64,000 nt of DNA from Cyanobacteria bacterium VAR_87_metabat_62 (lineage in GTDB: Bacteria > Cyanobacteriota > Cyanobacteriia > Cyanobacteriales > Microcoleaceae). The position numbers and the translations under genes are program-made. The notes below the pieces were generated by a model. The model ran no database searches, was not told the DNA's origin, and worked only from the letters and a program-made list of their open reading frames with translations. The stretch is from positions 4-64,003 of the forward strand of contig JANPMV010000001.1 of assembly GCA_031427135.1 (NCBI GenBank), read 5' to 3'. Positions 5,783-48,926 of the stretch are shown here, piece after piece (within the stretch, counting starts at the first letter, position 1; each line of letters starts with the position of its first letter).

Positions 5783-6268
5783 ATGAGTATCGTCACAAAG
5801 TCCATCGTCAATGCAGACGCTGAAGCTCGTTACCTGAGCCCAGGCGAACTTGACCGAATCAAAAGCTTCGTCACCTCTGGTGAACGTCGCGTCCGCATCG
5901 CCCAAATTTTGAGCGAATCCCGCGAACGTATCGTCAAGCAAGCCGGCGACCAACTTTTCCAAAAACGCCCTGACGTAGTTTCTCCCGGCGGCAACGCTTA
6001 CGGCGAAGAAATGACCGCAACTTGCTTGCGCGACATGGATTACTACCTGCGTTTGATCACCTACGGAATCGTAGCTGGCGACATTACCCCGATCGAAGAA
6101 ATCGGTATTGTCGGCGTCCGCGAAATGTACAAATCCTTGGGAACCCCGATTGAAGCAGTAGCCGAAGGAATTCGCGCTATGAAGAATGCAGCTTCTTCGT
6201 TGCTTTCTGGAGAAGATGCTTCCGAAGCTTCCTCTTACTTCGACTACGTTATCGGTGCGATGCAGTAA
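5783..6268 (+). CDS. apcA: allophycocyanin alpha subunit
   Basis: 161 aa, [30 protein letters not shown]... typical ApcA, followed by apcB and apcC. Confidence 0.97.
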
Positions 6269-6431
6269 AGATTTTAGATTTTAGATTTTAGATTGCAGAA
6301 TCGGGAGTTGCCGGCACTAAGCCCAAAGCTTTTGCAGATAACAAACCACAGATAAGTCTGAAATCCCAAATCCCAAATCCGAGCTACAAAATTGGACTGA
6401 ACTCAGCCACTTTCTAGGAAACAAGACTACC

Positions 6432-6917
6432 ATGCAAGACGCAATTACAGCCGTTATCAATTCCTCTGACGTTCAAGGTAAGTACCTGGACATCAGCGCT
6501 CTAGATAAGCTCAAGAACTACTTCGCATCTGGCGAACTGCGCGTCCGCGCCGCTACAGCCATCAGCGCCAACGCAGCCACAATCGTCAAAGAAGCAGTTG
6601 CTAAGTCTCTGTTGTACTCTGACGTAACTCGTCCCGGCGGCAATATGTACACAACTCGCCGTTATGCAGCTTGCATTCGCGACTTGGACTACTACCTCCG
6701 CTACGCCACCTACGCAATGCTAGCTGGCGACCCTTCCATCCTGGATGAGCGCGTGCTCAACGGTTTGAAAGAAACCTACAATTCCTTGGGCGTGCCCATC
6801 GGTTCTACCGTACAAGCCATCCAAGCAATGAAAGAAGTCACCGCCGGTTTGGTCGGTTCTGACGCTGGTAAAGAAATGGGCGTCTATTTCGACTACATCT
6901 GCTCTGGCTTGAGCTAA
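6432..6917 (+). CDS. apcB: allophycocyanin beta subunit
   Basis: 161 aa, [20 protein letters not shown]...[11 protein letters not shown] typical ApcB. Confidence 0.97.
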
Positions 6918-7010
6918 GACGAAGAAAGAAGGAAGAAGGAAAAAAGAAGAAGAAAGAACATTCATTTCTTACCTTTTTTAACTTTGGACTTGTTATCTTT
7001 GCCTTTGAAA

Positions 7011-44636: not shown

Positions 44637-44944
44637 ACTGCCGATAATGATATGGGAATTTCAGGCAAAAGAAACCTAATTTTTGATAAATATGTCTGGG
44701 CGGGGATTGACAGCGGGCTAAAAGCGGGCTACTGAATCTGGGCGGTGGATTGGTGGCGCGGCGGTGAGAATTCAGAGCGATCGGAGTGTAGTACAGTATT
44801 GCGATCGGATTTAGGTGCGGCGACACTACCAATTTTGCAGCTCAAAGTCTTTATTTGCAAGGATTTCTTGAGCTATAAGTCTTAGTTTTGGCGATCGACA
44901 CCCTATCTAAAAAACCCAATTTAAAAAAAAGTTGTATTACCCCC

Positions 44945-44974
44945 TTGACAGTCTTGTAATACGTAATGTAGTAT
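44945..44974 (+). promoter_or_regulatory. strong sigma70-like promoter candidate upstream of the tRNA array
   Basis: TTGACA (44945-44950), 18 nt, TAGTAT (44969-44974), A-tract upstream. Paralogous copy at 55535-55563. Confidence 0.55.
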
Positions 44975-45186
44975 AAATGCATGGCGAAAGAGAAAAGCTT
45001 CAAAGCGTTACTCCAAAAGCAATATGAACTTTGAAAACAGAATAGATAATTAATCGTGTCACATACTTTTGGACATTGGCGGTGTAGACTCCGGCAACAA
45101 TAGCCCGATCGGGTTGTAGTACGCGGAATCAACCGCCAGTAGTCCTAACTTGAGTCATTCAAGGACAGAATATTTTTGATTTTCGC

Positions 45187-45260
45187 GGGGGTATAGCTCA
45201 ACCGGTCAGAGCAGTCGCCTGTCGAGCGAAAGGTTGCGAGTTCAACTCTCGTTACTCCCG
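45187..45260 (+). tRNA. tRNA-Asp(GTC)
   Basis: Acceptor GGGGGTA/TACTCCC, loop CTGTCGA, T-arm GCGAG-TTCAACT-CTCGT, G73. Confidence 0.85.
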
Positions 45261-45264
45261 TCAA

Positions 45265-45340
45265 AGTCCCGTAGGCAAATTGGTTTAAGCCGTCACCCTC
45301 TCTGGCGTGAAAATTACGAGTTCAAACCTCGTCGGGACTC
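45265..45340 (+). tRNA. tRNA-like, irregular anticodon arm (CTC, Glu-like)
   Basis: Acceptor AGTCCCG/CGGGACT and a good T-arm. The anticodon arm has one extra nt (TCACC-CTCTCTG-G[C]GTGA). Confidence 0.5.
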
Positions 45341-45343
45341 CCA

Positions 45344-45417
45344 GGTTAGATGGCCGAGTGGTTTAAGGCGTCGCTCTGCAAAAGCGATTTTCGTGAGTTC
45401 AAATCTCACTCTAACCT
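45344..45417 (+). tRNA. tRNA-Cys(GCA)
   Basis: Acceptor GGTTAGA/TCTAACC, loop CTGCAAA, U73. Confidence 0.8.
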
Positions 45418-45475
45418 TTGTTCCTATTAATTAATAGGAGCAATCTCAAATCTGAAACTTCAAATCAGATTATAT

Positions 45476-45571
45476 AGCAGCGTAGCTTAATGGTAAAGCC
45501 CCAAGTTCATGCCTTGGCAATTGCGAGTACCGCTTCGCGGAAGCAAGCTACAAGTCCCGCCACTGCTACCA
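45476..45571 (+). tRNA. tRNA(CAT) Met-type with an about 21-nt insert in the T-loop; CCA encoded
   Basis: Anticodon arm CCAAG-TTCATGC-CTTGG. T-stem GCGAG/CCCGC encloses 28 nt. The 3' end reads ...CACTGCT-A-CCA. Confidence 0.5.
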
Positions 45572-45574
45572 AAT

Positions 45575-45649
45575 ACAGGGATGATGTAACTGGCAACATC
45601 TCAGTCTCCAAAACTGATTTTCTGAGTTCAAATCTCAGTCCCTGTGCCA
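45575..45649 (+). tRNA. tRNA-Trp(CCA); CCA encoded
   Basis: Acceptor ACAGGGA/TCCCTGT (A1-U72), loop CTCCAAA, G73. Confidence 0.8.
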
Positions 45650-45655
45650 ATTTAT

Positions 45656-45732
45656 AGTGCTGTAGGCAAATGGTTTAAGCCGCTTGGTTTTCACCCAAGT
45701 GATTGCGGGTTCAACTCCCGTCAGCACTTCCA
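45656..45732 (+). tRNA. tRNA-Glu(TTC); CCA encoded
   Basis: Acceptor AGTGCTG/CAGCACT, arm CTTGG-TTTTCAC-CCAAG. Confidence 0.8.
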
Positions 45733-45740
45733 AAACTTCT

Positions 45741-45822
45741 GGGTTGGCCCTCCTACTGGCGTGGGTAGCTGTCTGTAAAACAGTAGCTTAAAGCGTTGCT
45801 GGTTCAATTCCAGCCCGACCCA
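45741..45822 (+). tRNA. tRNA-Tyr(GTA), long variable arm, irregular D-arm
   Basis: Acceptor GGGTTGG/CCGACCC, loop CTGTAAA, A73. Confidence 0.6.
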
Positions 45823-45962
45823 TTTGTAACTGTATTATGACTTACACAAAAAACCCGGTTTCTGAGAAAAATCTTGTATCTCTACGAGAGATATTTAGAT
45901 AGAAACCGGGTTTTTGACCCCCGTGGGTAAATCCTGTGTATTTCATATGCAGTTGCAATTTT

Positions 45963-46037
45963 GAGAATGAGTTGTAACTGGACAACAATTCAGTTTGCGT
46001 GACTGAACATTCGGGGGTTCAAATCCCTCCGTTCTCG
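45963..46037 (+). tRNA. tRNA-like (GCG, Arg-like), atypical loop TTGCGTG
   Basis: Acceptor GAGAATG/CGTTCTC, 6-bp anticodon stem TTCAGT/ACTGAA. Confidence 0.55.
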
Positions 46038-46041
46038 CTAT

Positions 46042-46128
46042 GGAGAAGTGGCCGAGTGGCTTAAGGCGCTTTCCTGCTAAGAAAGAGCGGTTTAACAACC
46101 GTCGTGGGTTCAAATCCCACCTTCTCCG
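46042..46128 (+). tRNA. tRNA-Ser(GCT)
   Basis: Class II. Acceptor GGAGAAG/CTTCTCC, loop CTGCTAA, G73. Confidence 0.85.
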
Positions 46129-46132
46129 TTTT

Positions 46133-46205
46133 CCCCCGATAGCTCAGTTGGTAGAGCGCTTGTTTGAAGAACAAGAAGTCGTCAGTTCGATACTGACTTG
46201 GGGGA
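46133..46205 (+). tRNA. tRNA-Phe(GAA) with C1-G72
   Basis: Acceptor CCCCCGA/TTGGGGG, arm CTTGT-TTGAAGA-ACAAG, A73. Confidence 0.75.
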
Positions 46206-46211
46206 TTGCGT

Positions 46212-46287
46212 TGCCTCATAGCTCAATTGGTAGAGCTGCACGCTGTTAACGTGATGGTTGTAGGTTCGAGTCCTACTGAGGCAGCCA
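46212..46287 (+). tRNA. tRNA-Asn(GTT); CCA encoded
   Basis: Acceptor TGCCTCA/TGAGGCA (U1-A72), loop CTGTTAA, G73. Confidence 0.85.
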
Positions 46288-46298
46288 TTTTACAAATT

Positions 46299-46371
46299 GC
46301 CGGGTGGACAAATTGGTAAAGTCGGATGCCTCTGAAACAGGAGTTTATCAGGGTAAGAGCCTACCCCGGCA
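46299..46371 (+). tRNA. tRNA-like/pseudo-tRNA (GAA-type loop, no TTC T-loop)
   Basis: Acceptor GCCGGGT/ACCC(C)GGC, weak anticodon stem, T-arm reduced to AGG-GTAAGAG-CCT. Confidence 0.4.
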
Positions 46372-46380
46372 TTCAATTAT

Positions 46381-46454
46381 TGGGAAGTCGCCTAATTGGT
46401 ATGGCACCGCTCTTTGAAAGCGGACAAATGCAGGTTCAAGCCCTGCCTTCCCAG
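46381..46454 (+). tRNA. tRNA-Gln(TTG)
   Basis: Acceptor TGGGAAG/CTTCCCA (U1-A72), arm CCGCT-CTTTGAA-AGCGG, G73. Confidence 0.85.
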
Positions 46455-46483
46455 TTTTGCTATCACCAAAGCAGATTAATTAT

Positions 46484-46560
46484 ACTCCTGTAGCCCAATT
46501 GGTAGAGGCCGCAATTTCAAAAATTGTGTTGTGTGAGTTCAAATCTCACCAGGAGTACCA
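46484..46560 (+). tRNA. class-I-shaped tRNA with Leu anticodon CAA; CCA encoded
   Basis: Acceptor ACTCCTG/CAGGAGT, loop TTCAAAA, 5-nt variable region, A73. Confidence 0.65.
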
Positions 46561-46583
46561 AATTTTCAATTAAGTTTCTACTT

Positions 46584-46658
46584 GCTCTTGTGGCGGAATT
46601 GGCATACGCGGCAGATTTAAAATTTGTTTTATTGTGAGTTCGAGTCTCACCAAGAGTA
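46584..46658 (+). tRNA. class-I-shaped tRNA with Leu anticodon TAA
   Basis: Leu-type D-arm GTGGCGGAATTGGCATACGCG, loop TTTAAAA, short variable region, A73. Confidence 0.65.
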
Positions 46659-46662
46659 TGAA

Positions 46663-46736
46663 CGGGATGTGGCGCAACTTGGTAGCGCGGCGGCTTTGGG
46701 AGCCGAAGGTTGCAGGTTCAAATCCTGCCATCCCGA
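46663..46736 (+). tRNA. tRNA-Pro(TGG)
   Basis: Acceptor CGGGATG/CATCCCG (C1-G72), loop TTTGGGA, A73. Confidence 0.88.
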
Positions 46737-46740
46737 CTTT

Positions 46741-46814
46741 ACCTCTATGATGCAATTAGTAGACATCTCTTGTTGAGTGCGAGAGTTTTGTTGGTGCAAG
46801 TCCAACTAGGGGTA
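46741..46814 (+). tRNA. tRNA-like with Leu anticodon GAG, loop TTGAGTG, T-loop TGCAAGT
   Basis: Acceptor ACCTCTA/TAGGGGT, 6-bp anticodon stem, A73. Confidence 0.5.
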
Positions 46815-46848
46815 TTGGGTATCAAAGCCCAAAAGTGCGATCGATTTT

Positions 46849-46922
46849 ACCCTTGTAGCCCAATTGGTAGAGGCGCTAGACTTAGGATCTAGTTAGTGCT
46901 GGTTCAAGTCCAGTCAGGGGTA
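46849..46922 (+). tRNA. class-I-shaped tRNA with Leu anticodon TAG
   Basis: Acceptor ACCCTTG/CAGGGGT, arm CTAGA-CTTAGGA-TCTAG, A73. Confidence 0.65.
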
Positions 46923-46933
46923 TTTGGTGATAG

Positions 46934-47012
46934 CGCGGGTGACGTAGCCACGGTAGGATTGGAGGTCTCATAAGCCTCTTCATAGCAGGTTCAACTCCTG
47001 TCCCCGCCACCA
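46934..47012 (+). tRNA. tRNA(CAT) Met-type with imperfect acceptor/D-arm; CCA encoded
   Basis: Loop CTCATAA, T-arm GCAGG-TTCAACT-CCTGT, 3' end CCCCGCC-A-CCA, 5' CGCGGGT giving a C1:C72 mismatch. Confidence 0.5.
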
Positions 47013-47017
47013 AAAAT

Positions 47018-47089
47018 GCAGGTGTAATGTAACTGGCAACATGAGGCTCTTGTAAAGCTTTCTTGCGAGTTCAAATCTCGCCATCTGCT
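47018..47089 (+). tRNA. tRNA-Thr(TGT)
   Basis: Acceptor GCAGGTG/CATCTGC, loop CTTGTAA. D-arm is identical to the Trp gene at 45575. Confidence 0.8.
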
Positions 47090-47150
47090 TATAACTAAGC
47101 TAGAGGTGTTATTTTTGTTAATGTTTTGCTAACGAATCAGAGAAAAAATC

Positions 47151-47990
47151 ATGAGACGGATTGCGATCGCTCAAGATACACTAAAGATCATTGAAGCAGG
47201 CTACTACTGCTCTCCAGAAGGTAAACGCATTGAACTTGTTCAAAAAATAGCATCCTGTCTTGAACAGACCAAATCCTATGAACCCGATGCTCTTTCTAAG
47301 CTCAAACAAGTTGTTCTTTCTGCTACTTCATCATTCTCAAATATTGAATTTGAAGTTAGGAATGAGACGACTTTGATGGGAGCAGAACGTATGGCAACAG
47401 GACAACAGTTTCAAAAGATTGGAGTCCTTAATTTTGCTTCCGCTAAAAATCCTGGTGGTGGATTTCTCAAAGGCGCACAAGCTCAAGAAGAGAGTTTAGC
47501 ACGCAGTTCTGCTCTTTACAAAAGTATTTTAAAATGTCGTGGTCATTATGAATTTCATCGCTCTTATAATTCGCTCCTGTATTCCGATCGGATGATCTAT
47601 TCACCTGATTGTCCTGTTTTCCGAAAAGATGATGGAACGCTATTAGAAACACCTTATCTTGTTGATTTCATCACAAGTCCGGCTCCTAATGCTGGCGAAG
47701 TTTGGAGAAAACAATCCCAGGATGCTGAAAAAATACGCGAAGTTCTATATGAACGCGGTGCAAAATTGTTGAGCCTAGCTATTTCTAATGGCTGTGATGC
47801 TCTAGTTTTAGGAGCTTGGGGATGTGGTGTATTTAGAAATAAACCATCAATGGTTGCTCAAGTGTTTGCAGATTTATTATTCCCTAATAGTCAATTTTCG
47901 GGAAGAATAAAAAACATCTTATTTTCTGTACTTGACTCTTCTGAACAAGCAAAAGTATTTGCGGAATTTTATACTAGATTTATTTTGTAG
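47151..47990 (+). CDS. bacterial-type poly(ADP-ribose) glycohydrolase-like macrodomain protein (DUF2263/TIGR02452-like)
   Basis: 279 aa. NFASAKNPGGGFLKGAQAQEESL contains the PARG signature GGG-X7-QEE. Embedded in the tRNA array. Confidence 0.8.
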   Translation: MRRIAIAQDTLKIIEAGYYCSPEGKRIELVQKIASCLEQTKSYEPDALSKLKQVVLSATSSFSNIEFEVRNETTLMGAERMATGQQFQKIGVLNFASAKNPGGGFLKGAQAQEESLARSSALYKSILKCRGHYEFHRSYNSLLYSDRMIYSPDCPVFRKDDGTLLETPYLVDFITSPAPNAGEVWRKQSQDAEKIREVLYERGAKLLSLAISNGCDALVLGAWGCGVFRNKPSMVAQVFADLLFPNSQFSGRIKNILFSVLDSSEQAKVFAEFYTRFIL

Positions 47991-48040
47991 CGACTTCATG
48001 TTGAGATTGAAAACATGAAATTGCTAACACCAGTTGAAAT

Positions 48041-48111
48041 GCGGATATGGTGCAACGGTAGCATCTGAGTCTTCCAAACTCGCGATACGGGTTCGAGTCC
48101 CGTTATCCGCT
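48041..48111 (+). tRNA. tRNA-Gly(TCC)
   Basis: Acceptor GCGGATA/TATCCGC, loop CTTCCAA, U73. Confidence 0.85.
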
Positions 48112-48122
48112 TGGCTAAAGAT

Positions 48123-48195
48123 GGGAGTGTAGCTCAATGGATAGAGCGCCGCGCTTCGGACGCGGATGTTGTGGGTTCGACTCCTACCACTCTCG
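48123..48195 (+). tRNA. tRNA-Arg(TCG)
   Basis: Acceptor GGGAGTG/CACTCTC, arm CCGCG-CTTCGGA-CGCGG. Confidence 0.85.
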
Positions 48196-48296
48196 TTGTT
48201 TTTGCTTGAATTTAAGGAGGTTGATTCCATTGAATGATTGATTTTTTATAGTAACCCCGATCGCCCTTTTGCGTGTCCCAATCTTTGGATCCTACA

Positions 48297-48320
48297 TACT
48301 TTAGTACGAGAGGAAAGGTA
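48297..48320 (+). ncRNA. hairpin carrying an exact copy of the 23S rRNA sarcin-ricin loop dodecamer
   Basis: ACTTT-AGTACGAGAGGA-AAGGT. The loop at 48303-48314 equals the universally conserved AGUACGAGAGGA. Confidence 0.6.
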
Positions 48321-48508
48321 ACGCTGTCAAAAAAACGGCGCGCGTTTGTAAACGAGGAGTGCATTGAACCCGATAGGTAGGCTTAAAAGTAGCCATCCTT
48401 TAAAGAGTGTGTAGCAACTCATCGGCGGAGTCCCTCTAGTAACTCAGAAAACGCAATGCTCTGATAACTTATACGCAAAGTGCGATCGTGCAAAGCAACC
48501 AACAATAC

Positions 48509-48582
48509 GGGAGTGTAACTCAACTGGACAGAGTGTCGAGCTTCTACCTCGAAAGTTGTGGGTTCGGGTCCTACCACTCCTG
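48509..48582 (+). tRNA. tRNA-Arg(TCT)
   Basis: Acceptor GGGAGTG/CACTCCT, arm TCGAG-CTTCTAC-CTCGA. Confidence 0.8.
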
Positions 48583-48588
48583 TTAAAT

Positions 48589-48665
48589 GGGTTCGTAGCT
48601 TAATTGGAAAAGCATCTAACAGGCTGTTAGAAAGATATCGGTTCAAATCCGATCGCAATCCACCA
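48589..48665 (+). tRNA. tRNA-Ala-like (GGC), loop CAGGCTG; CCA encoded
   Basis: G1-C72, G2-C71, G3:U70, A73, with an extra C in the 3' acceptor strand. Confidence 0.55.
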
Positions 48666-48670
48666 AATTT

Positions 48671-48747
48671 GGGTCTGTAGCTTAATTGGAAAAGCACCTA
48701 GTTCGCTGCTAGGAAAATGTCGGTTCGAGTCCGATCGCGATCCACCA
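48671..48747 (+). tRNA. tRNA-Ala-like (CGC), loop TTCGCTG; CCA encoded
   Basis: Paralogue of 48589, with G3:U70, A73 and the same bulged C. Confidence 0.55.
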
Positions 48748-48752
48748 AAAAC

Positions 48753-48825
48753 GGGGTCATAGCTCAATTGGTAGAGCGCTTGCCTTGCACGCAAGAGGTT
48801 AGGAGTTCAATTCTCCTTGATTCCA
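48753..48825 (+). tRNA. tRNA-Ala(TGC)
   Basis: Acceptor GGGGTCA/TGATTCC with G3:U70, loop CTTGCAC, A73. Confidence 0.88.
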
Positions 48826-48926
48826 TGCGGTGTCTGAAGTCGAAGCAGTAGTAGCACTCGTTATTTCAACTAGCGACGTACTCATTATCGTACTATATTG
48901 TTTAGTAAAGACTGAAAACACTACTA

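Follow-up and report, generated by a model that had tools for sequence, protein, structure and literature searches.

The window analysed here, a 64,000-nucleotide stretch of DNA from Cyanobacteria bacterium VAR_87_metabat_62 (assembly GCA_031427135.1, contig JANPMV010000001.1, positions 4 to 64,003 of the forward strand), harbors on its + strand a tRNA gene array at 45186-56487, in which ARAGORN identifies 27 tRNAs and Rfam models recognize several further tRNA-like genes. Five genes of this array, with the anticodons CUC (Glu), GCG (Arg), GAG (Leu), GGC (Ala) and CGC (Ala), combine a T at position 37 of the anticodon loop with a G at position 38 (Table 1). A purine at position 37 is among the most constant features of tRNAs, and all five depart from the canonical elongator loop of 7 nt with U33 and a purine (R) at 37: T37 is present throughout, the Ala(GGC) gene has A33 as well, and the Glu gene has either an 8-nt loop or a bulge. 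No sixth gene with the T37-G38 motif was found in the window. Judging from its gene order and its flanks, the array is a chromosomal long tRNA array (L-array) of a Microcoleus; it has the density of this class, which is set at about 20 or more tRNA genes on one strand.

An earlier note on this DNA had reported the five loops, and ARAGORN together with direct reading places T37-G38 where it had been read in every gene, with clean 7-nt loops in four of them. A cloverleaf fold was obtained for all five. The note had itself raised the possibility of a wrong register; refolding leaves T37 in place and brings no purine to position 37, and a register error is ruled out by standard tRNA geometry, which fits four genes exactly, and by homology, which fixes the Glu-like gene. 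For the latter, the ARAGORN structure has a loop of 8 nt with a C.C mismatch closing it. Its orthologues carry the arm TCACC CCCTCAA GGTGA, and their alignment places the inserted C in the 3' strand of the stem; the homologous register is therefore the 7-nt loop CTCTCTG with a bulged C, as the note had it. The arm with T37-G38 and the inserted C occurs in 8 loci, in 4 distinct sequences.

Table 1. Features of the tRNA array and its surroundings in the window
Feature	Position	Strand	Description
Glu(CUC)-like tRNA	45265-45343	+	loop CTCTCTG 45298-45304, T37-G38 45303-45304; extra C in 3' strand of anticodon stem; Rfam 45.0 bits
Arg(GCG) tRNA	45963-46038	+	stem TCAGT/ACTGA, loop TTGCGTG 45995-46001, T37-G38 46000-46001; A8, not U8; Rfam 39.9 bits (small search)
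Leu(GAG) tRNA, class-I length	46740-46815	+	stem TCTTG/CGAGA, loop TTGAGTG 46773-46779, T37-G38 46778-46779
Ala(GGC) tRNA	48589-48665	+	stem TCTAA/TTAGA, loop CAGGCTG 48620-48626; C32-G38, T37; Rfam 42.7 bits
Ala(CGC) tRNA	48671-48747	+	stem CCTAG/CTAGG, loop TTCGCTG 48702-48708; U32.G38, T37; Rfam 39.4 bits; missed by ARAGORN
Glu(UUC) tRNA, U34 sibling	45656-45732	+	loop TTTTCAC, purine at 37
Leu(UAG) tRNA, U34 sibling	46848-46923	+	canonical loop CTTAGGA
Arg(UCG) tRNA, U34 sibling	48122-48196	+	canonical loop CTTCGGA
Ala(UGC) tRNA, U34 sibling	48753-48825	+	canonical loop CTTGCAC
Array core	45186-48825	+	21 ARAGORN tRNAs and at least 4 Rfam tRNA-like genes; interrupted by PARG-like open reading frame (ORF); sparser continuation to 56487
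Array promoter	44933-44974	+	TGTATTA-N5-TTGACA (-35, 44945-44950)-N18-TAGTAT; -10 inside TGTAGTAT box (44967-44974)
tRNA-like genes missed by ARAGORN	45476-45568, 45741-45825, 46298-46372, 46925-47015		Met(CAT)-like with insertion of about 17 nt (Rfam 39 bits), Tyr(GTA), weak remnant (15.5 bits), second Met(CAT)
PARG-like macrodomain ORF	47151-47990	+	PF10021, TIGR02452 family; between tRNA-Thr(UGU) and tRNA-Gly(UCC)
Copy of 23S rRNA GTPase-associated centre	48370-48425	+	in spacer 48197-48507, between tRNA-Arg(UCG) and tRNA-Arg(UCU)
HNH-motif ORF	48927-49760	+	inside the array
ORF with putative vWA domain	57162-58646	+	just 3' of the array; presumed Ro60/TROVE protein

The two Ala genes share G3.T70 and A73, which would identify both as tRNA-Ala, and also an encoded CCA and a 3' acceptor strand that is one nucleotide longer. 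They are adjacent tandem paralogues, 82% identical, and hence not independent of each other. The earlier note had described the five as non-adjacent and otherwise different tRNAs, which overstates the case for this pair. The A33 of the Ala(GGC) gene is private to this strain (2/37 loci). U8, the D-loop GG and the T-loop TTC are intact in the Glu gene and in both Ala genes, and A8 in the Arg gene is common to its subgroup. The Leu(GAG) gene has the T-loop TGCAAGT instead of TTC and a D-loop without GG, and the Rfam search for tRNAs gave no hit for it with a cutoff of E <= 10. By nearest-neighbour folding, the 32-38 pair has P >= 0.97 in all five genes, and it is predicted equally for canonical U32-A38 loops such as that of Pro(UGG). 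Because these ordinary loops are predicted to collapse too, the thermodynamic collapse to a 5-nt loop proposed in the note does not discriminate, and it was dropped as evidence; the pairing of G38 with position 32 is itself backed by covariation in Gly(GCC) tRNAs of the same arrays (see below).

We assessed the distribution of the motif in 86 cyanobacterial array loci, which contain 1121 unique ARAGORN tRNAs. The loci came from 14 plasmid arrays, from Microcoleus contigs found through the PARG-like protein, from a genome scan (7 loci) and from metagenomes (64 loci, retrieved with the 5' 25 nt of the Ala genes). The scan of genome contigs used the PARG-like alignment as an array marker and gave arrays in 7 of 80 loci among the matches listed, the rest being mostly unrelated actinobacterial ones; close Microcoleus genomes were not among the loci listed by it. 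A pyrimidine at position 37 (Y37) is present in 43 unique tRNAs, and 36 of these have G38 (TG in 29, CG in 7), compared with 37 of 1063 tRNAs with a purine at 37. The 36 tRNAs with Y37-G38 all fall among the 234 with G or C at both positions 34 and 36, with none among the 872 others, and by anticodon family the counts are 5/15 vs 0/34 (p = 0.0016). The restriction to G/C-rich anticodons that the note had remarked is thus real and sharper than proposed: G/C is present at both 34 and 36 in every case, and no U34 tRNA of the sample carries the motif. By anticodon, Y37-G38 is found in 19/21 GGC, 6/9 GCG, 5/21 GAG and 5/32 GTC tRNAs, in addition to CGC tRNAs and the 8-nt Glu(CUC) form.

The motif is conserved in related Microcoleus arrays, and its Ala(GGC) form extends to Nostocales, Coleofasciculaceae and other lineages. 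In Asp(GUC) tRNAs the loop TTGTCTG was found in 5 distinct sequences from cyanobacterial arrays (L030 7668-7743, a Nostoc metagenome-assembled genome (MAG), and L241, L274, L293 and L294), and the phage arrays L139 and L224 have the Asp loop TTGTCTC, that is T37-C38. By a conservative count, Y37-G38 has five or more origins, in the Ala(GGC), Arg, Leu, Asp and Glu families. It was absent from 7 phage array loci (114 tRNAs) and from 3 non-cyanobacterial plasmid arrays (104 tRNAs). A scan of viral sequences with a 15-nt Arg D-loop pattern was unspecific (>120 matches), and the only matches of the Ala pattern in viral contigs were tRNA-Lys genes of phages, which are unrelated. A survey of 61 cyanobacteria describes A37 as conserved in tRNA-Ala and tRNA-Asp, among others (PMC5733544), and our literature search found no published description of the Y37-G38 loop motif. 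The loop is real, non-random, conserved within lineages and tied to anticodon class.

The Ala tRNAs allow the loop to be followed on a single tRNA body. Retrieval by the 5' 25 nt, which is blind to the loop, gave 78 copies (37 distinct) with one body, characterized by G3.U70, A73 and a CCA that is usually encoded. On this body the loop follows the anticodon. GGC members have CTGGCTG in 33 loci (33/37 identical), the others being CTGGCCG, CTGGCAG and the CAGGCTG of the window; UGC members have CTTGCAA in 19 loci and TTTGCAA in 1; and CGC members have TTCGCAA in 10 loci and TTCGCTG in 11. The CTGGCCG form of Ala(GGC) is found on plasmid4 of Calothrix brevissima NIES-22. The T37-G38 allele of Ala(CGC) shares other states with the adjacent GGC gene, so that partial gene conversion may have occurred. 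All 78 copies have GC at positions 35-36. The identity of tRNA-Ala for alanyl-tRNA synthetase (AlaRS) is G3.U70, and the anticodon is not read; the invariance of GC, although AlaRS ignores it, therefore indicates that codon reading is under selection.

The Ala genes are also constrained in structure. Of the cells that make up the D, anticodon and T stems in the alignment (A2), 96.8% are paired, and compensatory changes affect 10 of the 15 pairs; 0 of 500 shuffles matched these values of pairing and covariation. The GGC members have four distinct anticodon stems, each fully paired, and T-loops with TTC and D-loops with GG are normal throughout the Ala members. The T stem GTCAG/CTGAC is found in GGC and UGC members alike; since body variants thus cross anticodon types, the loops stay distinct although the bodies exchange or co-evolve. 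Conservation in related arrays, covarying stems and the restriction to G/C anticodons together support the view of the earlier note that the loop looks selected rather than a product of random decay. As a separate peculiarity, the entire Ala family, including the members with canonical loops, has 8 nt in the 3' acceptor strand vs 7 in the 5' strand, with a conserved bulge near 67-69.

The combination of bases at positions 32 and 38 follows a similar pattern. Among all anticodons in the arrays, the rare Watson-Crick combinations A-U, C-G and G-C occur only in GCC (19/24), GGC (20/21) and GGG (2/3) tRNAs. C32-G38 is present in 20/21 Ala(GGC) vs 0/48 Ala(TGC) tRNAs and is thus confined to the G34 isoacceptor. 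The loops ATGCCAT, CTGCCAG and GCGCCAC all occur on one Gly(GCC) body; they correspond to A32-U38, C32-G38 and G32-C38, and this covariation is genuine. We read these data as selection for 32-38 pairing in strong-anticodon tRNAs of the arrays. The wobble combination U32.G38 was found in 6/9 GCG, 11/21 GAG, 6/32 GTC and 5/21 CTC tRNAs. An actinobacterial plasmid array has the canonical Ala(GGC) loop ATGGCAT, with A32-U38, and TTTGCAA in Ala(UGC). In tRNAs of strong four-codon boxes, 32-38 Watson-Crick pairs tune down binding, and E. coli has A32 in Ala(GGC) and Pro(GGG) and not in their U34 or C34 isoacceptors (PMC5041475); the A32-U38 pair of tRNA-Ala guards fidelity (PMC4238358).

The Arg, Leu and Glu families are less uniform. 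Nostocales and some other arrays have the Arg loop CTACGAA, with the anticodon ACG, and one array has GTGCGAA. Microcoleus arrays have TTGCGCG (the commonest), TTGCGCA, CTGCGCA or TAGCGCG, and TTGCGTG was found in the window only. Further Arg relatives carry TTGCACA or TAATAAA on a nearly constant body, with the anticodons GCA and ATA (L261, L022). In the Leu(GAG) family GAG is kept and its flanks vary (TTGAGTG, TTGAGCG, TTGAGGG, TCGAGAA, CCGAGAT and others), position 33 included, where C is also found. The T37-G38 lineage of Leu(GAG) comprises 4 distinct sequences, with the TGC T-loop and a D-loop without GG. Acceptor pair 4-69 of Leu(GAG) covaries in relatives (T.G, T-A, C-G), and there is covariation also in two Arg stems, the acceptor and the D stem. 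In L023 and L025 the T stem or the anticodon stem of the Glu orthologue is broken. The TGC T-loop goes together with loss of GG in the D-loop, both in the Leu(GAG) gene of the window and in Glu(CTC) of L002, L005, L022, L025, L028 and L030, and the TTC copies keep GG. This combination looks like a co-varying alternative elbow, as in the non-proteogenic tRNA-Gly of staphylococci, whose T-loops read TGC or TGT, whose anticodon stem has one additional pair and which fails to bind the ribosome (PMC7826273). We also observed that all four 'Leu' tRNAs of the array, the two in Table 1 and those at 46484-46560 and 46583-46659, measure 76-77 nt and have a variable region of 5 nt where a long variable arm is lacking, as they do in related arrays.

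The array is syntenic with cyanobacterial L-arrays of Nostocales plasmids, including the trn operon of Anabaena/Nostoc PCC 7120, and of Microcoleus chromosomes. The order Asp-Glu(CTC)-Cys-Met-Trp-Glu-Tyr-Arg-Ser-Phe-Asn-Gln-Leu-Pro-Leu-...-Thr-Gly-Arg-Ala is shared by the window, the 14 plasmid arrays and the Microcoleus loci. Its flanks look chromosomal, with genes for an OmpA-like protein, a biotin ligase and a polysaccharide deacetylase, and a contig of an independent assembly (L015) is identical to the window across the compared region. A promoter scan placed a promoter (10/12 matches) about 210 nt 5' of the first tRNA. It matches the TTGTAGTAYGCCCTTGACA-N-TGTAGTAT layout found 5' of the Anabaena 7120 trn operon and of 13 Nostocales arrays, in which TGTAGTAT is the reported operator of the repressor TrcR (PMC10272220). 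On this likeness, the window has the orthologue of the trn promoter that TrcR controls in Anabaena 7120, and such a promoter with TGTAGTAT boxes makes expression of the array under translational stress plausible by homology. Of the 26 tRNA genes in the Anabaena 7120 array, 3 are pseudogenes and 23 give tRNAs that are induced, become charged and are present on polysomes; array tRNAs are cleaved there while housekeeping tRNAs are not, and VapC genes are co-induced with the array (PMC8421152). Santamaria-Gomez et al. proposed that array tRNAs may be sponges for toxin RNases (PMC8421152).

Other elements are present in and near the array. One is a stand-alone, complete GTPase-associated centre of 23S rRNA, comprising helices 43-44, the 58-mer bound by L11 and thiostrepton. 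It aligns with positions 1179-1234 of the Rfam large-subunit rRNA model at 44-49 bits with its structure intact. BLAST found 36 other loci, all of them cyanobacterial arrays but one, which is a genuine Bacillus 23S rRNA. The array copies amount to 24 distinct sequences, in which the closing helix covaries, and a literature search returned no paper on such a copy in arrays. It may be a decoy for L11, for thiopeptides or for factors targeting the rRNA site, in an operon induced by translation inhibitors.

The closest homologues of the PARG-like ORF are 85-99% identical, several of them named Microcoleus, and its position is conserved in arrays of Microcoleus, Coleofasciculaceae, a Nostoc MAG, Floridaenema and Phormidium, which suggests a link between ADP-ribose removal and the array. 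Related Microcoleus arrays additionally encode a full-length EF-Tu paralogue of 409 aa (L022 14363-15592; L025 9191-10420), and L025 has a PIN-domain gene and an RNase T-like gene (5958-6936); all three are absent from the window. An HNH endonuclease gene lies always 5' of the array in the 14 arrays of Nostocales plasmids, and an HNH-motif ORF of the window lies inside the array. From its translation, the ORF just 3' of the array is a putative Ro60/TROVE protein that would carry a vWA domain.

We give about half of our confidence to the reading that Y37-G38 is an anticodon-coupled, weakened loop, which would tune down over-strong codon reading in supernumerary decoders. The five genes would ride in a horizontally spread, stress-inducible L-array of the Microcoleus chromosome. 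G38 would close the anticodon loop by pairing with C32 (Watson-Crick) or U32 (wobble), and the small pyrimidine taking the place of the stacking purine at 37 would presumably stack less on the codon helix. With the loop partly in a closed, non-binding shape, over-strong anticodons would bind the ribosome more weakly. The strong helices at issue would be those with the codons GCC, GCG, CGC, CUC and GAG, and the U34 siblings keep canonical A37-A38 or a purine at 37. The logic would equal that of A32-U38 in ordinary bacterial tRNA-Ala(GGC), with other nucleotides, and the chances seem to us evenly balanced that the loop variant extends the known 32-38 tuning rule in this way. We infer from sequence that the cell makes and charges these tRNAs and uses them on the ribosome, that their 32-38 pair forms in vivo and that the effect is a weakening. 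Tuning fits because it explains the confinement to strong G34/C34 anticodons, the contrast with U34 tRNAs on the same body, the retention of the anticodon and the 32-38 covariation; as an analogy, the tuning of strong-codon tRNAs (PMC5041475, PMC4238358) fits better than the roles proposed in the earlier note, namely non-decoding mimics or escape from anticodon nucleases or modification enzymes.

Several observations weigh against tuning. Purines are kept at position 37 in Gly(GCC) and Pro(GGG) despite their 32-38 pairs, and the Anabaena 7120 array, which is the experimentally studied one, contains no Y37-G38 tRNA. The hypervariable Arg and Leu loops are left unexplained. In Arg(GCG), 5 of 7 loop sites vary vs 10 of 69 body sites (p = 0.003), a pattern that looks like relaxed or diversifying selection and not like an optimum; this and the other p-values, that of the family-level test excepted, ignore shared ancestry. 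The five genes have the lowest Rfam scores in the array (45, 39.9, none, 42.7 and 39.4 bits, others 54-72), and near-universal positions are damaged in the window copies (A33, A8, G55). With A33 in Ala(GGC), A8 in Arg, an inserted C in Glu and a TGC T-loop in Leu, some of these copies may be impaired already.

If such damage were the main message, the motif would reflect relaxed constraint: the G34/C34 isoacceptors would be redundant with their U34 siblings and the housekeeping tRNAs, and their loops would drift in genes that are pseudogenes or nearly so. A U34 sibling is indeed present in the array for each of the five, and the low Rfam scores, the lesions (A33, A8, G55 without G18, inserted C), the broken Glu stems in L023 and L025, the mutated Arg anticodons in L261 and L022 and the pseudogenes among the Anabaena array genes (PMC8421152) would all follow. 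The five genes also diverge about as much as the spacers between close strains; substitution rates do not discriminate here, the spacers being 80-96% identical too. Drift should, however, give random bases at 37-38, yet G38 accompanies Y37 in 36 of 43 cases; it does not predict the G/C limit at 34 and 36, and it sits poorly with the compensatory changes seen in Ala stems, in the acceptor stem of Leu(GAG) and in two Arg stems (acceptor and D), and with an Ala(GGC) loop conserved over cyanobacterial orders. We consider this explanation improbable, and similarly doubtful is an escape from toxins of the host or of competitors (VapC/PIN, colicin D-like and others) or from modification enzymes, through altered flanks at 32, 33, 37 and 38 around an anticodon that still decodes. 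The Leu(GAG) and Arg(GCG) families, which mostly keep their anticodon while these four positions vary widely between arrays, would suit such an escape, as would the PIN-domain gene inside the related array L025, the VapC genes induced along with the Anabaena array (PMC8421152) and the proposal that phage array tRNAs dodge VapC-type nucleases by loop mutations (PMC10264068, PMC11555353). As a general property of the array, escape leaves unexplained that all U34 array tRNAs keep canonical loops. It would also require one YG solution in tRNAs of five anticodons, although each known anticodon nuclease is specific for certain tRNAs; the Ala(GGC) loop, instead of diversifying, has been conserved, and in Anabaena it was the array tRNAs that were cleaved and not the housekeeping ones. 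A group I intron, a DNA-level motif or complementarity with neighbours as the cause of TG found no support in the sequences, with no dedicated search run.

The five might instead be non-decoding tRNAs, kept off the ribosome by the closed loop and serving as amino-acid donors in reactions outside the ribosome, as decoys or sponges for toxins that target tRNAs, or as punctuation in the processing of the operon, which we regard as rather unlikely. Folding by the nearest-neighbour model gives 6-bp stems with 5-nt loops, and for the Ala(GGC) gene of the window a 7-bp stem with a GGC triloop. AlaRS and LeuRS need no anticodon, and the Arg clade keeps its body while the loop drifts. The Leu(GAG) gene, with its TGC T-loop and a D-loop without GG, resembles the staphylococcal non-proteogenic tRNA-Gly, and the sponge proposal and the cleavage of array tRNAs, not housekeeping ones, point in the same direction (PMC8421152). 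An anticodon-blind role predicts neither the invariant NGC of the 78 Ala copies nor the GAG kept over diverse Leu loops, and it does not explain why the motif follows anticodon strength; the non-decoding mimic of the earlier note is accordingly not supported as a general account and may still suit the Leu(GAG) copy. The Ala members moreover have normal TTC T-loops and GG D-loops, and no Fem, MprF, cyclodipeptide synthase or similar transferase appears among the listed ORFs and Pfam labels of the window and related arrays, in which no systematic search was made. A bolder form of the idea, to which we attach little probability, makes the Y37-G38 tRNAs a 'closed-loop' class that would be charged but kept off the ribosome, acting as decoys or sinks for tRNA-directed toxins or antibiotics in a mobile translation-defence island. 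That the partners in such an island would be the 23S GTPase-associated centre copy and the PARG-like enzyme, and in relatives the EF-Tu paralogue and the PIN nuclease, is likewise a slender possibility.

The coupling of Y37 to G38 matters in that it recurs in conserved, structurally constrained genes and only in strong-anticodon tRNAs. Should these tRNAs decode, they would be a natural experiment on the limits of anticodon-loop weakening, and the 32-38 tuning rule would then cover position 37 as well as new pair types. Should they not decode, they would be a new kind of non-translating tRNA in a stress-induced operon of debated role. Either way, YG vs AA on one tRNA body provides testable variants for decoding fidelity and for L-array function.

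Among known systems, the closest counterpart of the array itself is the L-array on plasmid delta of Anabaena PCC 7120 (PMC8421152, PMC10272220), with which it shares the dense arrangement of more than 25 tRNA genes, their order (Asp-Glu-Cys-...-Arg-Ala), a conserved promoter with TGTAGTA(T) boxes, the supernumerary tRNAs and the presence of odd tRNAs and pseudogenes. Unlike the Anabaena array, that of the window is chromosomal, lies in an oscillatorian (Microcoleus), is broken by a PARG-like ORF, an HNH ORF and an rRNA-like element, and has Y37-G38 tRNAs, of which the 7120 array is devoid. Drawn with the 8-nt loop CTCTCTGG, the Glu-like gene would resemble the +1 frameshift suppressors SufJ and SufA6 (PMC4238358); by homology, however, its extra C lies in the 3' strand of the stem and not in the loop, and a suppressor function is unlikely. 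With the phage tRNAs for which nuclease evasion has been proposed the genes have in common that tRNAs of mobile arrays carry non-canonical anticodon flanks. In the phages, tRNAs of many types are changed, at known sites where identified nucleases cut (PMC10264068, PMC11555353), in contrast to the arrays studied here, where only G34/C34 tRNAs with G/C36 are affected. The staphylococcal tRNA-Gly (PMC7826273) is similar in its supernumerary paralogues, in a possible extra anticodon-stem pair with a 5-nt loop and, for Leu(GAG) only, in the TGC T-loop. It differs in having a client enzyme, FemABX, and weak EF-Tu binding, both shown experimentally, and the Ala, Arg and Glu copies of the window, unlike it, keep TTC T-loops. 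The tuning of tRNA-Ala and its like by A32-U38 (Olejniczak and Uhlenbeck; Ledoux et al., 2009; reviewed in PMC5041475 and PMC4238358) resembles the arrays in that a 32-38 pair is present in the G34 and not in the U34 isoacceptor and that only G/C-rich anticodons are concerned. The weakening, which for the array loops is predicted from sequence, would here be achieved with C32-G38 or U32.G38 in place of A32-U38 and with an added pyrimidine at 37 that is not found in the canonical cases, and the motif reaches beyond them to Leu(GAG), Asp(GUC) and Glu(CUC).

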